From Yoonia sp. (GTDB lineage Bacteria; Pseudomonadota; Alphaproteobacteria; Rhodobacterales; Rhodobacteraceae), in assembly GCA_047629435.1 (NCBI GenBank), contig JBLHXF010000014.1, forward strand, positions 801 to 64,800: a stretch of 64,000 nt of DNA, written 5' to 3'. Positions 9,615 through 38,733 of the stretch are shown piece by piece. Below the pieces are notes generated by a model. That model saw nothing but the letters and a program-made list of their open reading frames with translations. It did not search any database and was not told where the DNA came from. A program made the position numbers and the translations under genes. Position 1 is the stretch's first letter. Each line of letters starts with the position of its first letter.

Positions 9615-10793
9615 TCAGATCGCGTCAAGCGCCTGTTTCAGGTCAGCAATCAGATCGACAGGGTCTTCCAGACCGACCGAAAGACGCACAAACCCCATTG
9701 AGATACCCAACATATCTTTTTGCTCCTGCGGGAGCCGCTGATGCGTAGTGGTGGCAGGATGGGTCACAATAGATTTGGCGTCTGCAAAGTTGTTCGAAAT
9801 CGTAAACAACTGCAGCGCATTCAAGAATTTGAAACAGGCATCACGGCCGCCATCAACTTCAAACGCCAACACAGTGCCACCGGATTCTGATTGGGACAAT
9901 GCCAATACCTGCTGAGGGTGATCTGCGTGGATCGGATAACGCACTGACGTAAGCTTTGGATGACCCGCCAAGGCATTTGCGACCTGCACCGAGGCTGCTG
10001 CCTGCGCGCGAACACGCAAATCGATTGTTTCCAATGATTTCAGATGCGTCCATGCGGTAAACGGGTTCATAGCACCACCCGTATGTTTGACATAAGCCTC
10101 AATTGGACCGCGGATCAGGTCACGTGATCCACAAATCGCACCGCCCAACATGCGGCCCTGCCCGTCCACGTGTTTCGTCGTTGAAATAATCGCAATGTCA
10201 GCACCGCAATCGGCAGCATACGAATAGATCGGCGTGGCCATCGCGTCATCCGCCAACACCAATGCGCCAACAGCATGCGCCGCTTTTACAATATGGCGAA
10301 TATCAACCACCTCTAGCGTCGGGTTCGAGATGCTTTCAAAGAATACCACCTTTGTATCAGGCCGAATGGCCGCATCCCAAGCCGCATTGTCAGTGCCGTC
10401 AACAAGCGTGATTTCCACACCAAACCGCGTAAGCACGTCTTCGAGGACATACAAACAAGACCCAAACAGCGCGCGCGACGACACGATATGGTCGCCCGAC
10501 TTCACCAGCGCCATCAACGCACCGCTTACCGCTGCCATGCCAGAATTACAGGCAAAGCAGTCTTCATAGCCCAGCATATCTGCCAAGCGATCTTCGAACA
10601 TGCGCACGGTCGGGTTGCCGTACCGTGCATAAATGAATTCGTCAGCCCCTGCTTTGATGAAACGGGCCTCTGCGGCCTCCGCTGTTTCATAAACAAAGCC
10701 TTGCGTCAGAAATATCGCCTCGGATACCTCGCCATATTGGCTGCGGCGGGTGCCTGTGTGGACGGCTTTGGTGCGTTTGCTCCAGGTGGTCAT
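9615..10793 (-). CDS. metZ: O-succinylhomoserine sulfhydrylase
   Basis: Cys/Met PLP family: YARYGNPT, SGMAA, STTKHVDGQGR, VRLSVGLED; SAM riboswitch upstream. Confidence 0.93.
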   Translation of the reverse strand: MTTWSKRTKAVHTGTRRSQYGEVSEAIFLTQGFVYETAEAAEARFIKAGADEFIYARYGNPTVRMFEDRLADMLGYEDCFACNSGMAAVSGALMALVKSGDHIVSSRALFGSCLYVLEDVLTRFGVEITLVDGTDNAAWDAAIRPDTKVVFFESISNPTLEVVDIRHIVKAAHAVGALVLADDAMATPIYSYAADCGADIAIISTTKHVDGQGRMLGGAICGSRDLIRGPIEAYVKHTGGAMNPFTAWTHLKSLETIDLRVRAQAAASVQVANALAGHPKLTSVRYPIHADHPQQVLALSQSESGGTVLAFEVDGGRDACFKFLNALQLFTISNNFADAKSIVTHPATTTHQRLPQEQKDMLGISMGFVRLSVGLEDPVDLIADLKQALDAI

Positions 10794-10823
10794 TAACTTT
10801 TCTCCAGTTGGCGATTGGCCAAC

Positions 10824-10856
10824 AAAAAACCCCGACACCGATCAAAGGTATCGGGG
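10824..10856 (-). terminator. Intrinsic terminator in the metZ leader
   Basis: Minus strand CCCCGATACC-TTTGATC-GGTGTCGGGG followed by T6. Confidence 0.8.
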
Positions 10857-10871
10857 CTACAACGCCCGTGA

Positions 10872-10927
10872 CCCTTTTTAGCGGCATATTTAACGTGGCC
10901 CGCAATCCGGTAACAAATCGCCACGTC
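10872..10927 (-). ncRNA. SAM-II (SAM-alpha) riboswitch
   Basis: CGTGG-CGATTT-GTTACCG-GATTGC-GGG-CCACG..GCTAAAAAGGG follows the SAM-II pseudoknot pattern and lies upstream of a methionine biosynthesis gene. Confidence 0.92.
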
Positions 10928-10930
10928 TAA

Positions 10931-10959
10931 GTCCTAGACCTGCTGCAGTGCAGCGTCAA
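10931..10959 (-). promoter_or_regulatory. Putative sigma70 promoter of metZ (TTGACG-N17-TAGGAC)
   Basis: Good -35 and 17-nt spacing; the predicted start falls at the 5' end of the riboswitch. Confidence 0.55.
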
Positions 10960-28263: not shown

Positions 28264-30081
28264 ATGCGCACCCAAAAGCCCGTTTATGATGCAACAACCA
28301 GCGGCGGCCGTGCCTTTGGCAACCTGCCCGAATGGGACCTGACGGACCTTTACCCAGGCGAAGATAGCCCAGAGTTGATCCGCGATATGGAATGGCTCGA
28401 CACGGCTTGCGCTGAATTCGCAACTGATTTTGAAGGTAAACTTGCGTCCCTTGACGCAGCTGGCATACTGAGCGCCGTACACCGTTACGAGGCGATCGAC
28501 ATCATAGCTGGGCGGATCATGTCCTATGCTGGGTTGCGGTATTACCAGATCACGACCGACAGCGATCGCGCAAAATTCATGGCCGACGCGCAAGATAAAA
28601 TCACCGCCTACACCACGCCGCTGGTGTTTTATGGTCTGGAGTTTAATCGCTTAGATGACGCACACCTGACGTCGCTTCTTGATGCGAACGCGGACCTTGC
28701 ACGCTACAAACCTGTCTTTGACCGGATGCGCGCGATGAAACCCCACCAGTTGTCTGACGAGTTGGAAAAATTCCTGCATGATCAATCAACCGTCGGGTCT
28801 GCCGCATGGAATCGCCTGTTTGATGAAACCATGGCTGGGCTGGAATTTGAGATCGACGGCGAGACGCTGAACCTTGAGGCCACACTGAACTTCATGACCG
28901 ACCAAGACCGGTCCAAACGCGAGGCGGCATCACATGCCCTTGCGGACGTATTCCAAGAGAACATCAAAATCTTTGCCCGCGTACACAACACGTTGGCCAA
29001 AGAAAAAGAGATCGAAGATCGCTGGCGCAAAATGCCAACCCCGCAAACCGGACGGCACCTGTCCAACCACGTTGAACCAGAAGTCGTCGAGGCGCTGCGC
29101 AATGCTGTCGTCGCAGCCTACCCGCGCCTGTCGCACCGCTATTACGCGCTGAAAGCGAAATGGTTGGGTCTCGAACGGATGCAAACATGGGACCGTAACG
29201 CCCCGCTACCGATGGAACACACCCGCACCGTAAGCTGGGACGAAGCACAAAAAACCGTCATGGATGCCTACGCTGACTTTGACCCCAAAATGGCCGAAAT
29301 CGCCAAGCCGTTCTTTACCGATGGCTGGATCGATGCAGGCGTCAAACCGGGAAAAGCACCCGGCGCATTTGCGCACCCAACCGTCACAACCGTGCACCCC
29401 TATGTGATGCTTAATTATTTGGGAAAACCACGTGATGTGATGACATTGGCGCATGAATTGGGCCACGGCGTGCACCAAGTATTGGCCGCTGAGCAAGGCG
29501 AATTGCTATCATCGACCCCGCTGACATTGGCCGAAACGGCGTCTGTTTTTGGGGAAATGCTGACCTTCCAGAAACTGCTTGAAGGGGCCACGACCAAAGA
29601 AGAACGCAAAGTCCTGCTGGCTGGCAAAGTCGAGGACATGATCAACACGGTCGTGCGCCAAATCGCATTCTACGATTTCGAATGCAAATTGCATGCGGCA
29701 CGCAGCATCGGCGAATTGACGCCAGACGACATCAACGCGCTTTGGATGTCCGTTCAGGCGGAATCGTTAGGTGAAGTATTCGATTACGCCCCTGGTTATG
29801 AAACATTCTGGGCCTACATCCCGCACTTCGTGCACTCACCCTTTTACGTCTACGCTTATGCGTTCGGTGACGGGCTCGTGAATGCGCTTTACGCAGTATA
29901 TTCCGAAGGTGATCCTGACTTCAAGGAAAAGTACTTTGATATGCTGCGCGCTGGTGGATCCAAGCACCATTCAGAATTGCTGGCACCTTTCGGATTAGAC
30001 GCATCTGACCCCAAATTCTGGGACAAGGGTCTATCGATGATCGAAGGTATGATCGACGAACTCGAAGCGATGGAGGACTGA
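28264..30081 (+). CDS. pepF: M3 family oligoendopeptidase F
   Basis: LPEWDLTDLY, GKAPGAF, Zn motif HELGH, ETAS, HFVHSPFYVYAY. Confidence 0.93.
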   Translation: MRTQKPVYDATTSGGRAFGNLPEWDLTDLYPGEDSPELIRDMEWLDTACAEFATDFEGKLASLDAAGILSAVHRYEAIDIIAGRIMSYAGLRYYQITTDSDRAKFMADAQDKITAYTTPLVFYGLEFNRLDDAHLTSLLDANADLARYKPVFDRMRAMKPHQLSDELEKFLHDQSTVGSAAWNRLFDETMAGLEFEIDGETLNLEATLNFMTDQDRSKREAASHALADVFQENIKIFARVHNTLAKEKEIEDRWRKMPTPQTGRHLSNHVEPEVVEALRNAVVAAYPRLSHRYYALKAKWLGLERMQTWDRNAPLPMEHTRTVSWDEAQKTVMDAYADFDPKMAEIAKPFFTDGWIDAGVKPGKAPGAFAHPTVTTVHPYVMLNYLGKPRDVMTLAHELGHGVHQVLAAEQGELLSSTPLTLAETASVFGEMLTFQKLLEGATTKEERKVLLAGKVEDMINTVVRQIAFYDFECKLHAARSIGELTPDDINALWMSVQAESLGEVFDYAPGYETFWAYIPHFVHSPFYVYAYAFGDGLVNALYAVYSEGDPDFKEKYFDMLRAGGSKHHSELLAPFGLDASDPKFWDKGLSMIEGMIDELEAMED

Positions 30082-30085
30082 TCGC

Positions 30086-30157
30086 AATGGCGGCGGTGCG
30101 GACAAAGTTAACGTTCGTCTTTTGAATTTCAATGACCGCTTCCAGGTGAGCGTCATT
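30086..30157. repeat. Degenerate 30-nt palindromic units with 15-nt spacer, cluster 1
   Basis: AATGGCGGCGGTGCGGACAAAGTTAACGTT (30086-30115) and AATGACCGCT..AGCGTCATT (30131-30157). Confidence 0.6.
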
Positions 30158-30199
30158 TAAGTAATCGTTGTGAATTTCTCACTTCTGGCACAAGTACAA

Positions 30200-31102
30200 C
30201 TATGTCTCAACTTGAATACCTGCCTTAAAATGCTCACCCGCAAAGGCCATGAACTTGCGGATTGCAGGGCGCACATAGCTTTCTTTCGAGGCGACGAGCC
30301 AGAGCGTGTGATAGAGTTCGTCATGGTGAAAGCACCGTACTAAACCGGGCGTTGCATCACCCGTAACACAGGGCAGCAAACCCAACCCTGCAACGGATTG
30401 GAGGGCTGCGACCATACTGGTGACAGCATTGACTTGATAGAGAATATTCCCGGAGTCGATTTGCCCGTTGAGCCAATCAACCGCTTTCATGCCACTGGCG
30501 ACTTCGTCGGAAAAGACCACGAATTTACGGCCTTTCGCCTCGTTCAATGATCGTGGCGCACCGTATTTTTGGTGATAGGCCGTATTACAATAGATCCCAA
30601 GAGGAATCCGCGCCAGTTTTTTGGCGATTAGCGTATCTCCGGTAAGTTCGTCCAACGGCCGAAGCGCCAAATCGGCTTTGCCCGCTTCTAGTGGTGGTTG
30701 GCTCTTGTCCCAAGCGACGTCAATCGTCAGTTCGAATGAAACATCGGGGTTCTTTTCTCTAAATCTTGAGGCGAGTCCGACACCAAATCGCTGCATCGCC
30801 TCGGCATTTCCAGTAAACCGGATCACACCTTCATCATCACGTGCCAACTGGTCAGCAGCGGTCAGGAGGGATGCTGCAGAAACGCGCATTTCTTTCGCAA
30901 CATCCAAAAGCACCAAGCCTTGCGCCGTCAATTGATAACCACGATTTGTACGTTCAAAGAGTTCGAGATTGAGCGCATGTTCCAAAGCGTCGATACGGCG
31001 CGCAACTGTTGTGTGGTTCATCCCGATGATACTGGCCGCCGCAAGCGACGACCCTTCTTCGGCGACCGTCAGAAACACGCGGATATCGTTCCAGTTGAAC
31101 AT
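30200..31102 (-). CDS. LysR family transcriptional regulator
   Basis: HTH WNDIRVFLTVAEEGSSLAAA..TVARRIDALE..LFER; divergent from the sulfotransferase. Confidence 0.93.
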   Translation of the reverse strand: MFNWNDIRVFLTVAEEGSSLAAASIIGMNHTTVARRIDALEHALNLELFERTNRGYQLTAQGLVLLDVAKEMRVSAASLLTAADQLARDDEGVIRFTGNAEAMQRFGVGLASRFREKNPDVSFELTIDVAWDKSQPPLEAGKADLALRPLDELTGDTLIAKKLARIPLGIYCNTAYHQKYGAPRSLNEAKGRKFVVFSDEVASGMKAVDWLNGQIDSGNILYQVNAVTSMVAALQSVAGLGLLPCVTGDATPGLVRCFHHDELYHTLWLVASKESYVRPAIRKFMAFAGEHFKAGIQVET

Positions 31103-31128
31103 GAGAGCCTCCCGTTCTGATGACACTG

Positions 31129-31171
31129 TGCACGAATGCAGAGCCGCAGGCTACTATTGTGTATTTATGCA
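31129..31171. promoter_or_regulatory. Putative paired LysR operator boxes
   Basis: TGCACGAATGCA (31129-31140) and TGTATTTATGCA (31160-31171), 31 bp apart, in the divergent intergenic region. Confidence 0.4.
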
Positions 31172-31228
31172 AATGGCAGACGCGCCTAACCTAGCGTCAA
31201 GACATTCAAGCCTCAAAGGAATTTCATA

Positions 31229-32122
31229 ATGCATGCTTTGCCAACAAAAACCCGCGACATACATAGCCATCATTTTGACAGCACAATCTGGGACGACATT
31301 CAGTTTCGCGACGATGACATTATCATCGGAACTTATGGGAAAACTGGAACGACATGGATGCAGCAAATCATCAGCCAACTTATATTTAACGGTGAAGAAG
31401 GCCTGCCTGTTTCGGAGATGGGCCATTGGGTTGATTTACGCATTCCGCCCAAAGAGATGAAATTGCCCATGATTGAGGCCCAGACTCATCGCCGCTTTCT
31501 GAAGACGCATCTTCCCGTCGATGCGCTCGTTTTCTCAGAAAAGGCAAAATACATTTACGTCGCGCGCGATGGGCGTGACATTGCTTGGTCTCTCCACAAC
31601 CACCACCTAAACGCCAATGATGCGTGGTACGACGCGCTGAATAACACGCCTGGACGTGTTGGCCCTCCCATTGAGCCACCAGTTGGCACCACGCAAGATT
31701 ATTTTGAGAGCTGGCTCGACAATGATGGTGCGCCTTTCTGGCCTTTCTGGGAAAACGTCCGTTCTTGGTGGGCCATTCGCGACCTTCCAAATGTGATGTT
31801 GGTGCATTTCGCGGATCTGAAATCCGACATGGAAGGTCAAATTCACCGCATTGCCGAATTCATTGATGTGCCAACCGATCAGGTAACCATGGACCGCGTG
31901 CTTGAGCACTGCTCGTTCGACTATATGAAAGAAAACGCTGCGCAAACTGTTCCGCTGGGTGGTGCATTCTGGGATGGCGGCGCAAAAACCTTCATTCACA
32001 AGGGTAAGAATGGCCGTTGGAATGACGAGTTGCCGCAAGCGTTGAGTGAGCGGTATGAACAAACAGCCGTCATCCAACTGGGCGAAACCTGCGCAGAATG
32101 GCTCAAGAACGGCGCATCATAA
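31229..32122 (+). CDS. PAPS-dependent sulfotransferase (Sulfotransfer_1 family)
   Basis: 5'-PSB loop TYGKTGTTW, LKTHLP, 3'-PB RDGRD, C-terminal HKGKNGRW. Confidence 0.9.
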   Translation: MHALPTKTRDIHSHHFDSTIWDDIQFRDDDIIIGTYGKTGTTWMQQIISQLIFNGEEGLPVSEMGHWVDLRIPPKEMKLPMIEAQTHRRFLKTHLPVDALVFSEKAKYIYVARDGRDIAWSLHNHHLNANDAWYDALNNTPGRVGPPIEPPVGTTQDYFESWLDNDGAPFWPFWENVRSWWAIRDLPNVMLVHFADLKSDMEGQIHRIAEFIDVPTDQVTMDRVLEHCSFDYMKENAAQTVPLGGAFWDGGAKTFIHKGKNGRWNDELPQALSERYEQTAVIQLGETCAEWLKNGAS

Positions 32123-32182
32123 GCGCCAACTAGAGCGCAGACGCCACAATCTAACATCAATTTCGTTAGGGGATTTTTGCAG

Positions 32183-32536
32183 ATGTCACATTCAATCTTT
32201 CGCTCATTAACAATCTCAACCGCTCTGACATTAGGATCATGTCAGAGCGCGGCTGCCCAGGAAGCGGTCATGATCGTACAGCATCAAGTTGCCGATTTTG
32301 CGGAATGGAAGTCCATTTTTGACGGGGCACTTGCAACCAGACAAAGCGTCGGAGAAACCGCATTCGAAATTTTGCAAGACCCCGATGACTCCAACTCAGT
32401 TACCGTCGTCTTCCAATGGGATACGCTTGATCGTGCAAAGGCGTTCGCGGAAGATCCGGTGCTGGAAAATGGGATGCGCGCTGCTGGGGTGATATCCACG
32501 CCGGGTTTTACGTTCTGCAGGATTGCGAACTATTAA
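32183..32536 (+). CDS. Signal-peptide-bearing ABM-like (dimeric alpha-beta barrel) protein
   Basis: HQVADFAEWKSIFD..DPDDSNSVTVVFQWD..AKAF..L..M..AGV pattern after a Sec-like signal. Confidence 0.7.
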   Translation: MSHSIFRSLTISTALTLGSCQSAAAQEAVMIVQHQVADFAEWKSIFDGALATRQSVGETAFEILQDPDDSNSVTVVFQWDTLDRAKAFAEDPVLENGMRAAGVISTPGFTFCRIANY

Positions 32537-32573
32537 ATTCTCTAAATGCATGGCACCGTTCCTGCCAGTAACA

Positions 32574-32764
32574 GCGTTCGCGTCCAAACTCAAAACCGTC
32601 GTTTGTGCGCCGTGCAGCATTGGTCGGATTGGGCTCACTGCCGACCTTCGCTACGTTTGCACACGAAACCAACGCCAAACCGGACGGCGAGCGGCGGCAC
32701 TGCGGGCTTTTTTGCCGTTCGCGTTTCAATTGTCGACGGCTGCTTTTGGTTTTACAAGCGCTCG
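32574..32764. repeat. Degenerate 30-nt palindromic units with 15-nt spacers, cluster 2
   Basis: Units at 32574-32603, 32619-32648 (GGTCGG..CCGACC), 32690-32719 and 32735-32764. Confidence 0.65.
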
Positions 32765-32855
32765 ATAATATTAAATCAAAAAATCATGAGTTCGTGCGAC
32801 GGAACACAGCTGCTACGGCGTTTAATACTCGATAAATCTTTTAAGGAATCCCAAA

Positions 32856-33497
32856 ATGAAACCTATTCTCGCCTCGTTGGCTCTACTGGCCACATCGGCG
32901 CTGCCACTCTCAGCCGAAACCCTGTCTGCCGATGTTTGGGCCGACAATTGGTTCGAGATGCGCATTGACGGTGCGCAGGTTGCAGAAGACAGCGTGTCGA
33001 TCTCCACCGAGCGGTCTTTTAACGCTGAAAGCTTCACTTTTGAGGCCGAGCGCCCGTTTGTGATCGGTTTAGTCGCAAAAGATTTCAAGGAAAACGATAC
33101 CGGCTTAGAATATATCGGGGCACGTAATCAGCAGATGGGCGATGGTGGCGTGATCTTACAGATTATGGATGAAACGGGCGAGCTTGTGGCGGTGAGCAAC
33201 GATGGCTGGCAGTGCCTCGTTATCCATTCCGCACCTTTGGACAAATCCTGTGAAGGATCATCCAATCCTGTTGCCGGTGAAGGGGCCTGTGCATTTGAGG
33301 CATCCGACGAACCCGACGGTTGGGACACGGCTGATTTTGACGCCTCCGATTGGCCGCAAGCTGATGTTTATTCCGCGCGCGATGTGGGGCCAAAGGACGG
33401 CTACGATGAAATCACTTGGGCTGACGACGCCGCACTGATTTGGGGCCCGGATCTTGAGCAAAGCAATACAATTCTGTGCCGCCTGACTGTCGAGTAA
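32856..33497 (+). CDS. Secreted acidic lectin-like beta-sandwich protein (CBM67-like by motif)
   Basis: Signal peptide; WADNW..RIDG, GDGG, SNDGW, PDGW..DFDASDWPQA, ALIW. Confidence 0.7.
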   Translation: MKPILASLALLATSALPLSAETLSADVWADNWFEMRIDGAQVAEDSVSISTERSFNAESFTFEAERPFVIGLVAKDFKENDTGLEYIGARNQQMGDGGVILQIMDETGELVAVSNDGWQCLVIHSAPLDKSCEGSSNPVAGEGACAFEASDEPDGWDTADFDASDWPQADVYSARDVGPKDGYDEITWADDAALIWGPDLEQSNTILCRLTVE

Positions 33498-33519
33498 TCA
33501 TTTATAAAGGAGCCTGAAT

Positions 33520-34482
33520 ATGGCTTTTTCAAAACCTATCGCCATCACCGCCCTAACGGTGATCTCCTTCCCAACTTTTGCCCTCGCACACGAGGACCAT
33601 TGCAGCGCGGTTACGGCCTCGGTCGCGGACGCGGGGTTTGACGGCGAGGTGGTTGTGAGCTGTACCGACAGCCATGCGACCCTGACGTCGGACACCTATC
33701 CAGATCACGACCTGATGACCGGAATAGTCGGCACAAACGAACAGGTACCAGTGCCCGCAGAGTACGGCGCGCCAATTTTTCTGGCACCAGTCCTCAGCGG
33801 CACGCCCCTGACACGCGATGCGGCCTTAGGCGTCGCCGTCAACGGCGTGCCTATTTATGACTACACAGGCGGCGGCGAAATGAGCCAATCCGACCTCGCG
33901 CACCATCAAGCACAGCACGACACAATCCAGACCGGGCAACTTGACGTTTGTGGTGGCCATGCCGGGCGCGGTGACGACTACCATTATCACGCTGAACCGA
34001 CGTGTATGATTGAGCAGATGGCCAATGCGGGCGATGCCGCTATCATCGGTTGGGCCTTTGACGGGTTCCCGATTTACGGCGATGCAAACCCTGACGGCAC
34101 TGCAATTGCGGACGGGGCATTGGATGTCTGCAATGGTCAGGCCGACGACACCTTTGGCTACCGCTATCATACGTCGCCAGATGCGCCCTACATAGTGCAA
34201 TGCCTGATGGGTGAAGTCCCTGATTTTGACGCGTTGCCGCGTGTGCGCCCACTATCCGCAGCGACTGGCGGCGGTGCAGCACCCGGTCGCCCGCCCAGCG
34301 GTGGCGTTGAAGACCTTGTGTTCACCCAAAACGGCGATGACACCCGCAGCATGGATTATACCTACGAGGGTAATGCTTACTTCATCCGTTACACTCCGGC
34401 GGATGCGGATGGGTGTTACGCCTTCACGACACAAACAGTCACCAACGACGGTGAACTGATGACGGGCGAGTTTTGCAGATGA
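33520..34482 (+). CDS. Secreted YHYH-domain protein
   Basis: Signal peptide; GVAVNGVPIY, CGGHAGRGDDYHYH, GWAFDGFPIYG, LDVCNG, YRYH. Confidence 0.88.
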   Translation: MAFSKPIAITALTVISFPTFALAHEDHCSAVTASVADAGFDGEVVVSCTDSHATLTSDTYPDHDLMTGIVGTNEQVPVPAEYGAPIFLAPVLSGTPLTRDAALGVAVNGVPIYDYTGGGEMSQSDLAHHQAQHDTIQTGQLDVCGGHAGRGDDYHYHAEPTCMIEQMANAGDAAIIGWAFDGFPIYGDANPDGTAIADGALDVCNGQADDTFGYRYHTSPDAPYIVQCLMGEVPDFDALPRVRPLSAATGGGAAPGRPPSGGVEDLVFTQNGDDTRSMDYTYEGNAYFIRYTPADADGCYAFTTQTVTNDGELMTGEFCR

Positions 34483-35033
34483 GCCGGTACACCGCCATAT
34501 GCACCATCGCATCGATCTGCGCATTACTGGCAACCGCCAGTATGGCGCAGGACACCTTCACCCTATCCAGTCCTGAAATTGTGGATGGGGGCGTGCTCCC
34601 GGCTGCGCTGAAATGCACCCGCGATGGTGGCGATGGCGTATCACCTGCGCTGGCGTGGTCGGACGTTCCTGCTGGGACTGAAAGCCTTGCAGTGATCATG
34701 CACCATTATCCAAGAGGCGCAGTGGCTGGGCGCGATACCCCCAGTCAATACTGGCTGTTGTGGAACATCCCACCAAACACGTTCGAACTCGAACGTGCCA
34801 ACCCGCTTTCTATCGGGGACGAAGGCGCTGACAAAGACAAACGGCACACAGGCTATACGCCGCCGTGTTCGCCAGCAGGTTCTGCGCATGAATACACAGT
34901 CACTGTTTATGCATTGGATGCGCCACTCACCAGCCTACCAGAAAACAACGACATTTCTGTCGATTGGGAAACGTTGACTGCGGCCATGGCTGACAAAGTA
35001 GTCGCAAGCTCACAAATCAGTTTTAAGAATTAG
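34479..35033 (+). CDS. Secreted YbhB/YbcL (PEBP/RKIP-like) protein with atypical pocket
   Basis: FTLSSP..G, SPALAWSDVPAGTESLAVIM, WNIP, YTPPC..HEY..VYALD; ATGA overlap with the YHYH gene. Confidence 0.88.
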   Translation: MSRYTAICTIASICALLATASMAQDTFTLSSPEIVDGGVLPAALKCTRDGGDGVSPALAWSDVPAGTESLAVIMHHYPRGAVAGRDTPSQYWLLWNIPPNTFELERANPLSIGDEGADKDKRHTGYTPPCSPAGSAHEYTVTVYALDAPLTSLPENNDISVDWETLTAAMADKVVASSQISFKN

Positions 35034-35051
35034 AAAATTCTTGGCATCGGG

Positions 35052-35126
35052 CCCGCGCCAAACAGCTCCAAAGCTGCCGTTCGTTGCGGCGCAGAAGAAT
35101 TGCACTTTGGGCTCTGAACCGACTTT
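35052..35126. repeat. Degenerate 30-nt palindromic units with 15-nt spacer, cluster 3
   Basis: ..CAAAGCTGCCGTT (35052-35081), spacer CGTTGCGGCGCAGAA, ..CTTTGGGCTCTGAACCGACTTT (35097-35126). Confidence 0.6.
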
Positions 35127-35394
35127 AATCCAACTCAGTCCACGGCCAGGGTTTTACTTCTGATGCCGCGGTCTGATACCGCACAGATTTGGCCATCCAA
35201 ACGCCCATCGTTGTGCCAAACTCGGCCAATTGCTCATTTGGCTGACGTTTGTTCACCACCATAATGATGAACTGAATAACCGCGATGATCCAAAACAGGC
35301 TTTGTGCAAAACTAAGCAACACACCTATGATGATCATGCTGACCAGACGCATCCAAAGGCTTTCGTAATCGCTGGGGGTTTCTTCATCATTCAT
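35125..35394 (-). CDS. DUF4389-like small membrane protein
   Basis: WMRLVSMII..QFI..NEQLAEFG..W..Y..KPWPW pattern; family name from recall. Confidence 0.75.
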   Translation of the reverse strand: MNDEETPSDYESLWMRLVSMIIIGVLLSFAQSLFWIIAVIQFIIMVVNKRQPNEQLAEFGTTMGVWMAKSVRYQTAASEVKPWPWTELD

Positions 35395-36355
35395 GTGCGT
35401 TTCCTGCGGTAAATACCATATCCATCATCTCTTGTGTGCCACGAGAGAACGACAGCGGGCAAGGATAAGCTGCACCAGTGGCAACGGACCTCTCAAAATT
35501 CTCAACCTGAAGCACATATTGGTTCACCGCAGGCCAACGCTCAGTTACAACCCGCTGGCCATCATTTTCCAAGATCAGCTCTGCGATATTATGCACATTC
35601 GCGTTAAACGGACAGGTCAGGGTCAAGAACCCCGTGTCGCCATGAAACGTGACTGACTGGCGTGGCTGCATACGGATTGACACCGTCGCACCATAGGTGA
35701 AATCTGGAAATTCAGCAGCGACATGGGCGAAAACATCAACATCATTCTCAAACGTCAAATTGGCATAGGGGATGCTGACAGGGTCTTGCCCACTGACAAA
35801 CCGCGCGGCACCAAAGGCATAAACGCCAATATCCCGCAGTCCGCCGCCACCCGTCTCAGGCTTATTACGAATATCGCCGACGGCATCTGCATTGTTAAAA
35901 CTGAACACGCAATCCACATGGCGCAAGCGACCAATCGCACCGCCCTGCACCAATTCGCGTGCGCGGATGAACTGCGGATGATGCACAATCATATAGGCCT
36001 CTGCACACAGCTTGCCCGTAGCATCGGCAGCTGCCTGCAACTGGTCAAACTCTGATGCCTGCATTGTAATCGGCTTTTCACACAGCACATGTTTGCCAGC
36101 AGCCAAGGCTTTTAGCGTCCAAGGCACATGCAGATGGTTCGGCAACGGGATATAAACCGCATCAATCGCAGGATCGGCCAACAACGCGTCGTAGGTGTCA
36201 AATACCTGCAGGTCCGGCGCGATGGCTGTAAACGGCGCGGCCTTTGCAGGATCAGATGTTGCCAATGCGACTAACTGCGCACCACGTGCCGTATGAATGG
36301 CTGGCGCCATATGATTTGACGCAAATCGCGACGCCCCTAGAATCCCCCAACGCAT
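35387..36355 (-). CDS. Gfo/Idh/MocA family oxidoreductase
   Basis: RWGILGAS, DAVYIPLPNHLH, KHVLCEKP, GGGLRDIGVY. Confidence 0.92.
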   Translation of the reverse strand: MRWGILGASRFASNHMAPAIHTARGAQLVALATSDPAKAAPFTAIAPDLQVFDTYDALLADPAIDAVYIPLPNHLHVPWTLKALAAGKHVLCEKPITMQASEFDQLQAAADATGKLCAEAYMIVHHPQFIRARELVQGGAIGRLRHVDCVFSFNNADAVGDIRNKPETGGGGLRDIGVYAFGAARFVSGQDPVSIPYANLTFENDVDVFAHVAAEFPDFTYGATVSIRMQPRQSVTFHGDTGFLTLTCPFNANVHNIAELILENDGQRVVTERWPAVNQYVLQVENFERSVATGAAYPCPLSFSRGTQEMMDMVFTAGNAHE

Positions 36356-38656: not shown

Positions 38657-38733
38657 TGGTACCGCCTCCCCGGCTTGAACGGGGGACCTCTGGTTCCACA
38701 AACCAGCGCTCTAACCAACTGAGCTAAGGCGGC
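38657..38733 (-). tRNA. tRNA-His(GUG)
   Basis: 77-nt cloverleaf: acceptor GCCGCCT/AGGCGGT, anticodon arm CTGGT-TTGTGGA-ACCAG, T arm CCCCG-TTCAAGC-CGGGG, A73, encoded CCA. Confidence 0.97.

Follow-up and report, generated by a model that had tools for sequence, protein, structure and literature searches.

Mosaic intergenic repeats at the edges of two portable gene modules in an accessory islet of a Yoonia sp. genome

Roseobacters are a major marine group with strongly strain-variable gene content, and the movement of small accessory modules is, to our knowledge, poorly understood, save for plasmids, gene transfer agents and large islands. We analysed a 64-kb stretch of Yoonia sp. contig JBLHXF010000014.1 (the whole stretch is referred to as the window), in which an accessory block of ~5 kb (30082-35124) is inserted between the core genes pepF and DUF4389. 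Its three repeat clusters hold four copies or half-copies of an intergenic repeat, and the layout of the block is pepF / L / LysR-sulfotransferase / R-linker-L / lectin-like-YHYH-PEBP / R / DUF4389, where R and L are the two parts of the repeat element (Table 1). Copies R1 and R3 are called L-type, and copies R2 and R4 are called R-type. The gene content and order of the block, as assigned with Pfam, agree with an earlier note on this DNA. The placement of the repeat clusters is likewise as described there: no more than 10 nucleotides (nt) separate the pepF stop from the start of the first cluster, the last one finishes on the stop of DUF4389, and the clusters split the block into two modules. 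The GC content is ~0.51 in module 1, ~0.57 in module 2 and ~0.54 in the flanks; the difference between the modules is consistent with separate origins for the two. Farther downstream of DUF4389 are genes for a GFO/IDH/MocA oxidoreductase and an rpoH-like sigma factor (Pfam).

Table 1. Genes, repeat copies and a conserved motif at the pepF-DUF4389 locus (window coordinates; ORF, open reading frame).
Feature	Coordinates	Strand	Remarks
pepF (oligoendopeptidase F)	28264-30081	+	Core gene left of the insertion; Pfam Peptidase_M3 and M3_N; stop codon 30079-30081
R1, L-type half-element (right part of the full element)	30084-30141	+	Abuts the pepF stop; a hairpin follows at 30131-30157
Module 1, LysR regulator	30200-31126	-	Pfam
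Module 1, sulfotransferase	31229-32122	+	Pfam
Module 1, small ORF	32177-32536	+	No Pfam match
R2, full R-type repeat	32594-32654	+	The 16 nt at either end repeat one core motif (period 45 nt)
Conserved centre of the R-linker-L composite	32630-32705	+	High-copy in sea-ice metagenomes; 76% identical to L118 5733-5808
R3, L-type repeat	32695-32746	+	Weak palindrome GCCGTTCG (loop 32720-32731) CGACGGC
Promoter- or operator-like motif GCGACGGAAC-N13-CGTTTAAT (GCGACGGAAn-N13-CGTWTAA)	32796-32826	+	Belongs to module 2
Module 2, lectin-like secreted protein	32856-33497	+	No Pfam match
Module 2, YHYH	33520-34482	+	Pfam
Module 2, PEBP	34473-35033	+	Pfam
R4, R-type repeat, short form	35053-35126	+	Terminates on the DUF4389 stop codon
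DUF4389 gene	35125-35394	-	Core gene right of the insertion; Pfam; stop codon 35125-35127

The four copies make two direct-repeat pairs, each ~55-75 nt: an L-type pair at 30091-30141 and 32695-32746, and an R-type pair at 32594-32654 and 35072-35126. In gapped alignments with permissive scoring, R2 and R4 (32578-32648 against 35053-35126) gave z values of 5.3-6.9 and R1 and R3 (30078-30141 against 32681-32746) gave 3.8-5.1. The four cross comparisons of L-type with R-type, aligned in the same gapped manner against shuffles, were at chance level. The pairs are visible only under permissive gapped scoring. Strict local alignment (+2/-3) of the clusters was not significant, and neither a search for ungapped repeats nor blastn-short detected similarity between the clusters above chance.

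Profiles were then rebuilt from the copies in other genomes only and run on the 64-kb window. They matched exactly four sites: 32596-32652 (E = 5.9e-12), 35072-35126 (6.4e-8), 32695-32744 (1.2e-6) and 30091-30140 (9.5e-6). The next best match had an E value of 0.23. The window thus holds no further copy, which bears out the earlier statement that no clear copy lies between core genes. Exact counts of the core motif described below showed only a 1.3-3.5-fold intergenic enrichment and are of no use by themselves. The repeats had no Rfam match at the gathering threshold and none at E<=5, and a scan for terminator and promoter consensus sequences was unremarkable.

The repeats are dispersed in other genomes. 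Iterated nhmmer on 2.2 Mb of Rhodobacterales loci (designated below by L numbers) detected 17 R-type and 8 L-type copies at E<=1e-3, and none in the reversed-sequence control database. The profiles thus score far above control, a comparison of the kind that the earlier note had proposed as a test. Among the first 14 R-type copies, 11 were free of long ORFs and 3 overlapped ORFs that are possibly spurious. The R copies were downstream of, and co-oriented with, the preceding gene in 11 of 17 cases; the other six were not. The R-linker-L arrangement was also found in L118, L175, L176, L173 and L183, with a variable linker. In L173 (10-8716) and L175 (8787-17285), which are dense in copies, all 12 R and L copies are on one strand, and the genes between them point in both directions. 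An array-like structure, or else the direction of replication, might account for this polarity.

The copy number can be very high. In the sea-ice metagenome run X17, contig depth was ~650 over 32630-32705 against a baseline of 4-5 (~130-fold), and many contigs of this run begin or end within the same interval. The excess depth and the contig breaks mark the composite's centre as a high-copy repeat in the X17 community. A pattern scan of IMG/VR returned 13 matches, 11 of which were full R-type copies (L177-L189, predicted viral or prophage contigs). Several of these copies lie 20-800 nt from a contig end, and their neighbour genes are ordinary, with no recombinases among them; their placement may reflect host flanks or assembly breaks at repeats. 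A composite searched with blastn against the PLSDB plasmids matched nothing. In the literature searched we found no account of repeats of this kind in Rhodobacterales, and we know of no named repeat family that the element resembles in sequence. The R and L repeats are a real and apparently undescribed mosaic family, ~150 bases long, of marine Rhodobacterales.

The full element in the window (32594-32746) measures ~150 nt, in which a well conserved linker joins an R part of ~61 nt to an L part of ~50 nt. A core motif of 12-16 nt (AGCnGCCGTTCG) recurs within it, with three direct copies and one inverted copy per full element. The ends appear to be imperfect terminal inverted repeats of ~11 nt, as read by eye from the alignment, in which AGCnGCCGTTCG at the 5' end is the complement of CGACGGCnGCT at the 3' end. 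In the same alignment by eye, the two ends covary in the window, L118 and L175 and do so weakly in L183. Within the R-type, a core motif of ~16 nt (AGCnGnCnTTCGnnGC) repeats at a distance of 45 nt. The R-type consensus is AGCnGnCGTTCG-tGC...G.GCAGCATTGG..A...TGGGCTC..AGCnGnCnTTCGCTGC, with TGGGCTC and TTCGCTGC near-invariant and the centre better conserved than the arms. Six R copies share the terminus ...GnCnTT. In the L-type, the core is present once direct and once inverted (GCCGTTCG, loop, CGACGGC), and this weak structure is the sole palindrome.

The earlier note had described the clusters as 30-nt imperfect palindromes separated by 15-nt spacers and mostly followed by CG. The period of 30+15 nt arises because the core motif recurs 45 nt apart within the R-type. 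The CG is the end of the core GCCGTTCG, and the 15-nt spacer after U5 is the loop of the weak palindrome of the L-type. The consensus proposed for the palindromes, AAYGGCNGCWWTGNGSNCAAAGCNGMCRTT, matched nowhere in the window, even when 3 mismatches were allowed. We reconstructed the eight 30-nt units (U1, 30086-30115; U2, 30131-30157; U3, 32574-32603; U4, 32619-32648; U5, 32690-32719; U6, 32735-32764; U7, 35052-35081; U8, 35097-35126). Folding beyond that of shuffled sequences was seen in only two of them, U2 (hairpin z -2.65) and U4. Their mean pairwise similarity was 6.79 against 6.30 +- 0.25 for shuffles, and with 58% mean column identity the eight units do not make one alignable family. 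RNAalifold found no conserved pairs in the R-type and a weak 6-bp consensus stem in the L-type. Folding of the full element (32590-32750) was shuffle-like on both strands (z 0.05 and -0.65). A conserved hairpin is absent, and the repeats are not hairpin sites.

The site of insertion is conserved in its surroundings and variable in its content. pepF, with its downstream synteny, is kept across 80 relatives, and the order pepF, (DUF4389), GFO, sigma factor, pseudouridine synthase is retained in most of them. The pepF-DUF4389 distance is 20-100 nt in L004, L009, L011, L017, L018 and L044 and a few bases in L069. The adjacency of the two genes in relatives that the earlier note proposed to look for, as the sign of an empty site, was thus observed. 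Across 65 genomes, the gap 3' of pepF ranges from 6 nt to 7.5 kb. In none of the 80 relative loci did we find the six block genes near pepF or DNA resembling 30100-35100. In the nearest relative genome compared, pepF was 97% identical in protein and ~86% identical in DNA. The sequence of the window was detected in ~20 metagenome runs from sea-ice, seawater and sediment, and every one of the metagenome contigs with identical proteins had the same complete arrangement. Relatives have an empty site where the window has this 5-kb accessory islet, which is made up of two portable gene modules.

The modules are portable in that each occurs elsewhere. Module 1 recurs in four unrelated contexts: L173/L174, L175 (Sulfitobacter sp. 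SK012) and L176 carry it with 81-84% DNA identity, each beside different neighbours. In L175 and L176, the homology begins at 30097, inside R1, and stops at 32636-32648, at the end of R2. In the blastn comparison with L173 it spans less (30218-32516). R1 has a homologous flank in L173, L175 and L176; in these three loci an R part precedes the L part, where the window has the pepF stop. For module 2, the homology with L150 extends from 32718, inside R3, to 35123, at the end of R4, and sequence homologous to R4 lies 3' of PEBP there. The homology with L090 and L149 begins at the L part, and R3 is kept at the left edge of module 2 in L090, L149 and L150. The L149/L150 break at the L part, downstream of which identity is 100%, is perhaps an assembly effect at the repeat and was not used as evidence.

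The lectin-like gene of module 2 has >2500 homologues, which are labelled 'PEBP family protein' at NCBI. They are usually beside YHYH and sometimes beside PEBP, in varying order and in many contexts. The lectin-like, YHYH and PEBP proteins look like a conserved secreted three-protein unit. The motif GCGACGGAAC-N13-CGTTTAAT lies ~55 nt upstream of the lectin-like gene, and at least 14 unrelated roseobacter loci have it equally far from the start codon. For comparison, the EcfG-type promoter is GGAAC-N16-CGTT, in which the spacing is longer than in the module 2 motif. In module 1, a metatranscriptome contig of a ~92%-identical relative covers 31212-32581 unbroken and continues into an R-type motif. 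This contig indicates that the sulfotransferase gene and the small ORF, for which a metagenome gene caller predicts an 88-amino-acid product, are co-transcribed, with the R part in their 3' untranslated region. Each module is a self-contained transcription unit.

At other pepF sites, a copy was present in only one of 64 gaps (L072); the repeats are thus not a general property of insertions here. At the pepF loci with copies (L006, L041, L047, L056 and L072), all six copies lie downstream of pepF, at 67-3463 nt. The probability of this placement was ~5e-4 by a post hoc estimate. In L041 the order is pepF, L copy, one small membrane-protein gene, R copy. An 89-amino-acid gene beside this R copy was considered as a DUF4389 gene and rejected; it is a TraR/DksA zinc-finger gene.

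The window yielded no recombinase, either in the 30 ORFs scanned (about half of those in the window) or in the Pfam lists within 10 kb on either side, in agreement with the earlier note. The note had proposed to look for recombinase or HUH genes that co-occur with the repeats; none was consistently beside copies across eight annotated loci. The sole mobile-element gene seen near copies was an IS5-family DDE transposase gene in L090 (4938-6338, minus strand). It sits between an AAA ATPase gene and the L copy 5' of module 2 and was not called by the source's gene caller. This IS5-family element was rejected as the parent of the repeats, because its ends do not match them.

The positions of the breaks within the element vary by locus. 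R1 starts at the equivalent of ~32684, the break in L150 is at ~32706, and a 35-nt central piece is absent from both outer junctions of the islet.

Metagenome contigs carrying the block start or stop at 29629-29660 and at 35409-35452. In run X5, of which ~70% was read, flank-identical contigs had a depth of ~165, and nothing comparable was seen on 29752-35422. The depth and the contig ends fit homologous recombination that exchanges the islet as a whole, with crossovers inside pepF and at the DUF4389/GFO junction and not at the repeats. This suggests that a second haplotype between ~29.64 and ~35.44 kb exists in the population, and the islet appears to be exchanged within the population by homologous recombination in the flanking core genes. 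Joints skipping the block or one module were absent from the contigs of eight DNA runs, which is a weak result since contigs hide rare variants. In X5, one contig of a relative with 81% identity passes straight from the pepF stop (30083) to 35949. An empty site of the L001 type was considered as the alternative haplotype and was not found in X5 and X1 at >=90% identity. In its variable gap between conserved genes, and in its haplotypes with identical flanks that differ over ~29.64-35.44 kb, the locus is like known flexible islets. Unlike these, the islet itself is made of two repeat-bounded modules that also occur elsewhere.

We lean towards the view that the repeats are mosaic elements like MITEs (miniature inverted-repeat transposable elements) or bacterial interspersed mosaic elements (BIMEs), and that their conserved centre is a shared recombination breakpoint for module shuffling. 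For the element's role in recombination and its manner of spread, we infer the following. The repeats would act as portable homology, and recombination inside the conserved centre of the elements flanking a module would move the module between contexts. Such recombination in the centre would account for the L starts and the R ends of the module homology blocks. For the elements themselves, spread in the manner of MITE- or BIME-type repeats is probable, and they are also transcribed within the 3' untranslated region of neighbour genes. Gain and loss of the islet in the source population would proceed by ordinary homologous recombination in the flanking core genes.

Several known repeats resemble the element in part. 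Like BIME of E. coli, RIME of Sinorhizobium and the pneumococcal BOX A-B-C, it is short, non-coding, multi-copy and intergenic. As in these families, it has a few conserved modules with variable linkers, partial copies are common, and it is transcribed with neighbour genes, often at the 3' ends of operons. It differs from them in that its units are not palindromic hairpins of the repetitive extragenic palindrome (REP) kind and do not alternate in orientation, and in that half-elements coincide with the edges of portable gene modules. The likeness to MITEs (non-autonomous derivatives of insertion sequences, such as Correia/NEMIS or RUP) lies in the length of ~150 nt, the lack of coding capacity, the apparent imperfect terminal inverted repeats of ~11 nt, the contig breaks and a copy number that is very high in certain genomes and communities. 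In contrast to MITEs, the centre is better conserved than the ends, and the core motif recurs internally in direct orientation.

A number of observations weigh against MITE- or BIME-like elements as breakpoints for shuffling. At its outer junctions the islet has just half-elements, which adjoin stop codons. Full elements would remain after a single homologous crossover into a resident element, and the first insertion here is therefore left without an explanation. A parent insertion sequence with matching ends was not found (the ends of the L090 IS5-family element were compared), and no target-site duplication turned up, though no test aimed at one was made. MITE-type spread is therefore unproven. 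The terminal inverted repeat is short and was examined in 3-4 full copies only. The one-strand copies in L173 and L175 are unexpected of simple MITEs, and some lectin-YHYH loci, for example on plasmid pSC52_2, are without any copy. The X5 evidence covers ~70% of the run, and contigs conceal rare variants.

A cassette system mobilised in trans is unlikely in our judgement, and several features of the locus would fit it. Non-autonomous gene cassettes would have L and R as their two ends or as attL/attR-like half-sites, and R-linker-L would be the joined form, as in tandem or circular copies. A recombinase encoded elsewhere would cut the conserved centre between R and L, and multi-gene modules with their own promoters would hop between intergenic sites in a system unrelated to integrons. 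The order L-module 1-R.L-module 2-R mirrors the attL-element-attP-element-attR order of tandem integrants, with half-elements exactly at both outer junctions. An L-cargo-R layout was seen for three cargoes, namely module 1, module 2 and the small membrane-protein gene after pepF in L041. The copies in L173 and L175 share one strand, in the manner of an array, and the six R copies with the terminus ...GnCnTT share an end point. However, an L-genes-R layout is trivial if co-oriented R.L elements stand between genes. The break positions differ, and the central piece of 35 nt is missing at the outer junctions. The lack of a conserved hairpin or core-site structure, of a recombinase in the window scans or consistently near copies in the annotated loci, and of module-skipping joints in the eight DNA runs also speaks against cassettes. 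The very high copy number of the centre suits a repeat burst more than att sites.

As in integron cassette arrays, repeats part small accessory gene units, they are co-oriented in some loci, and the cassette itself needs no recombinase inside it. Unlike attC, the repeats have no attC-type fold or core sites; attI and Pc are missing, and no intI was found in the 30 ORFs scanned or in the Pfam lists within 10 kb. Integron cassettes are mostly single promoterless ORFs in one orientation, whereas module 1 has a divergent LysR/sulfotransferase pair and module 2 is an operon of three genes that has a conserved promoter-like motif of its own. The boundary in integron cassettes is at one end of the repeat; here it is mid-element.

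Quite unlikely, too, is a role in cis with no part in mobility. The repeats would then be RNA or DNA elements of 3' untranslated or intergenic regions, such as stabilisers of mRNA ends, processing sites or protein-binding sites, that travel with operons. In a relative, the sulfotransferase mRNA indeed carries the R-type at its end, the majority of R copies (11 of 17) are 3' of a co-oriented gene, and the almost invariant TGGGCTC and TTCGCTGC, in a centre conserved above the arms, would suit such a function. But the six remaining copies are not so placed, a conserved secondary structure and any Rfam match at E<=5 are lacking, and the L part of module 2 sits upstream of the promoter of the module. 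A role in cis would also leave the half-elements at the junctions, and the ending of module homology inside the element, unexplained.

The earlier note had interpreted the repeats as hairpin-type recombination sites of an integron-like or HUH-type system. Its observation is partly confirmed and its interpretation partly supported: repeats of a real family mark the boundaries of accessory modules, and both modules recur elsewhere as discrete blocks, but the hairpin-site part failed in the structure tests and for want of the defining attC and REP features. We consider it very improbable that the repeats belong to a known family of this kind, either integron attC or REP/BIME sequences mobilised by a RAYT (HUH) transposase. 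The repeats lie between genes, in many copies and at accessory-gene boundaries, and the L part has a weak palindrome of 6-7 bp, which would suit such a family. Against this, the R-type has no conserved pairs, just two of the eight units fold significantly, and the attC core sites RYYYAAC and GTTRRRY are absent from the alignments. The modules have their own promoters and include a divergent gene pair, and no intI or RAYT gene was present in the window scans or in loci extended by 10 kb on either side. The repeats do resemble REP sequences and REPINs in being abundant and extragenic (the 2.2 Mb of loci hold 25 copies, most of which avoid long ORFs) and possibly trans-mobilised. They differ from these in that they are not imperfect palindromes of 20-40 nt and have no conserved 5' GTAG-type head, and no RAYT gene was seen in the 64-kb window or the +-10-kb loci. 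Unlike the ends of IS200/IS605-type (HUH) elements or PATE, they have no conserved hairpins, and the composite without cargo is ordered R then L, where those elements would have the left end before the right. A CRISPR array has near-identical repeats of 28-37 nt and unique spacers of similar length; here the units have 58% mean column identity, the spacers are 15 nt long, and no cluster has more than four units.

Chance resemblance among GC-rich terminator regions, to which the unmatched earlier consensus, the 30-nt units that barely exceed shuffles and the empty blastn-short comparison between clusters would point, is hardly credible and was dismissed on the gapped z values of up to 6.9, the independent profiles that hit just these four sites (E = 1e-5 to 6e-12) and the reversed control with no match.

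If repeats of the MITE/BIME type do act as breakpoints in module shuffling, a high-copy modular repeat at the edges of portable two- and three-gene modules would be a testable handle on gene shuffling in roseobacters. The repeat would also be a practical marker of module boundaries and of assembly breaks in polar metagenomes. Were the repeats instead the sites of a dedicated recombinase, they would belong to a new gene-cassette system.

Two further features were observed in the window. A tRNA-His gene (38657-38733, minus strand) lies 3.3 kb from the islet, and neither a repeat copy nor an integrase adjoins it. A SAM_alpha (SAM-II) riboswitch (10856-10934, minus strand) is located directly 5' of a gene for a pyridoxal phosphate enzyme of Cys/Met metabolism (9615-10838).

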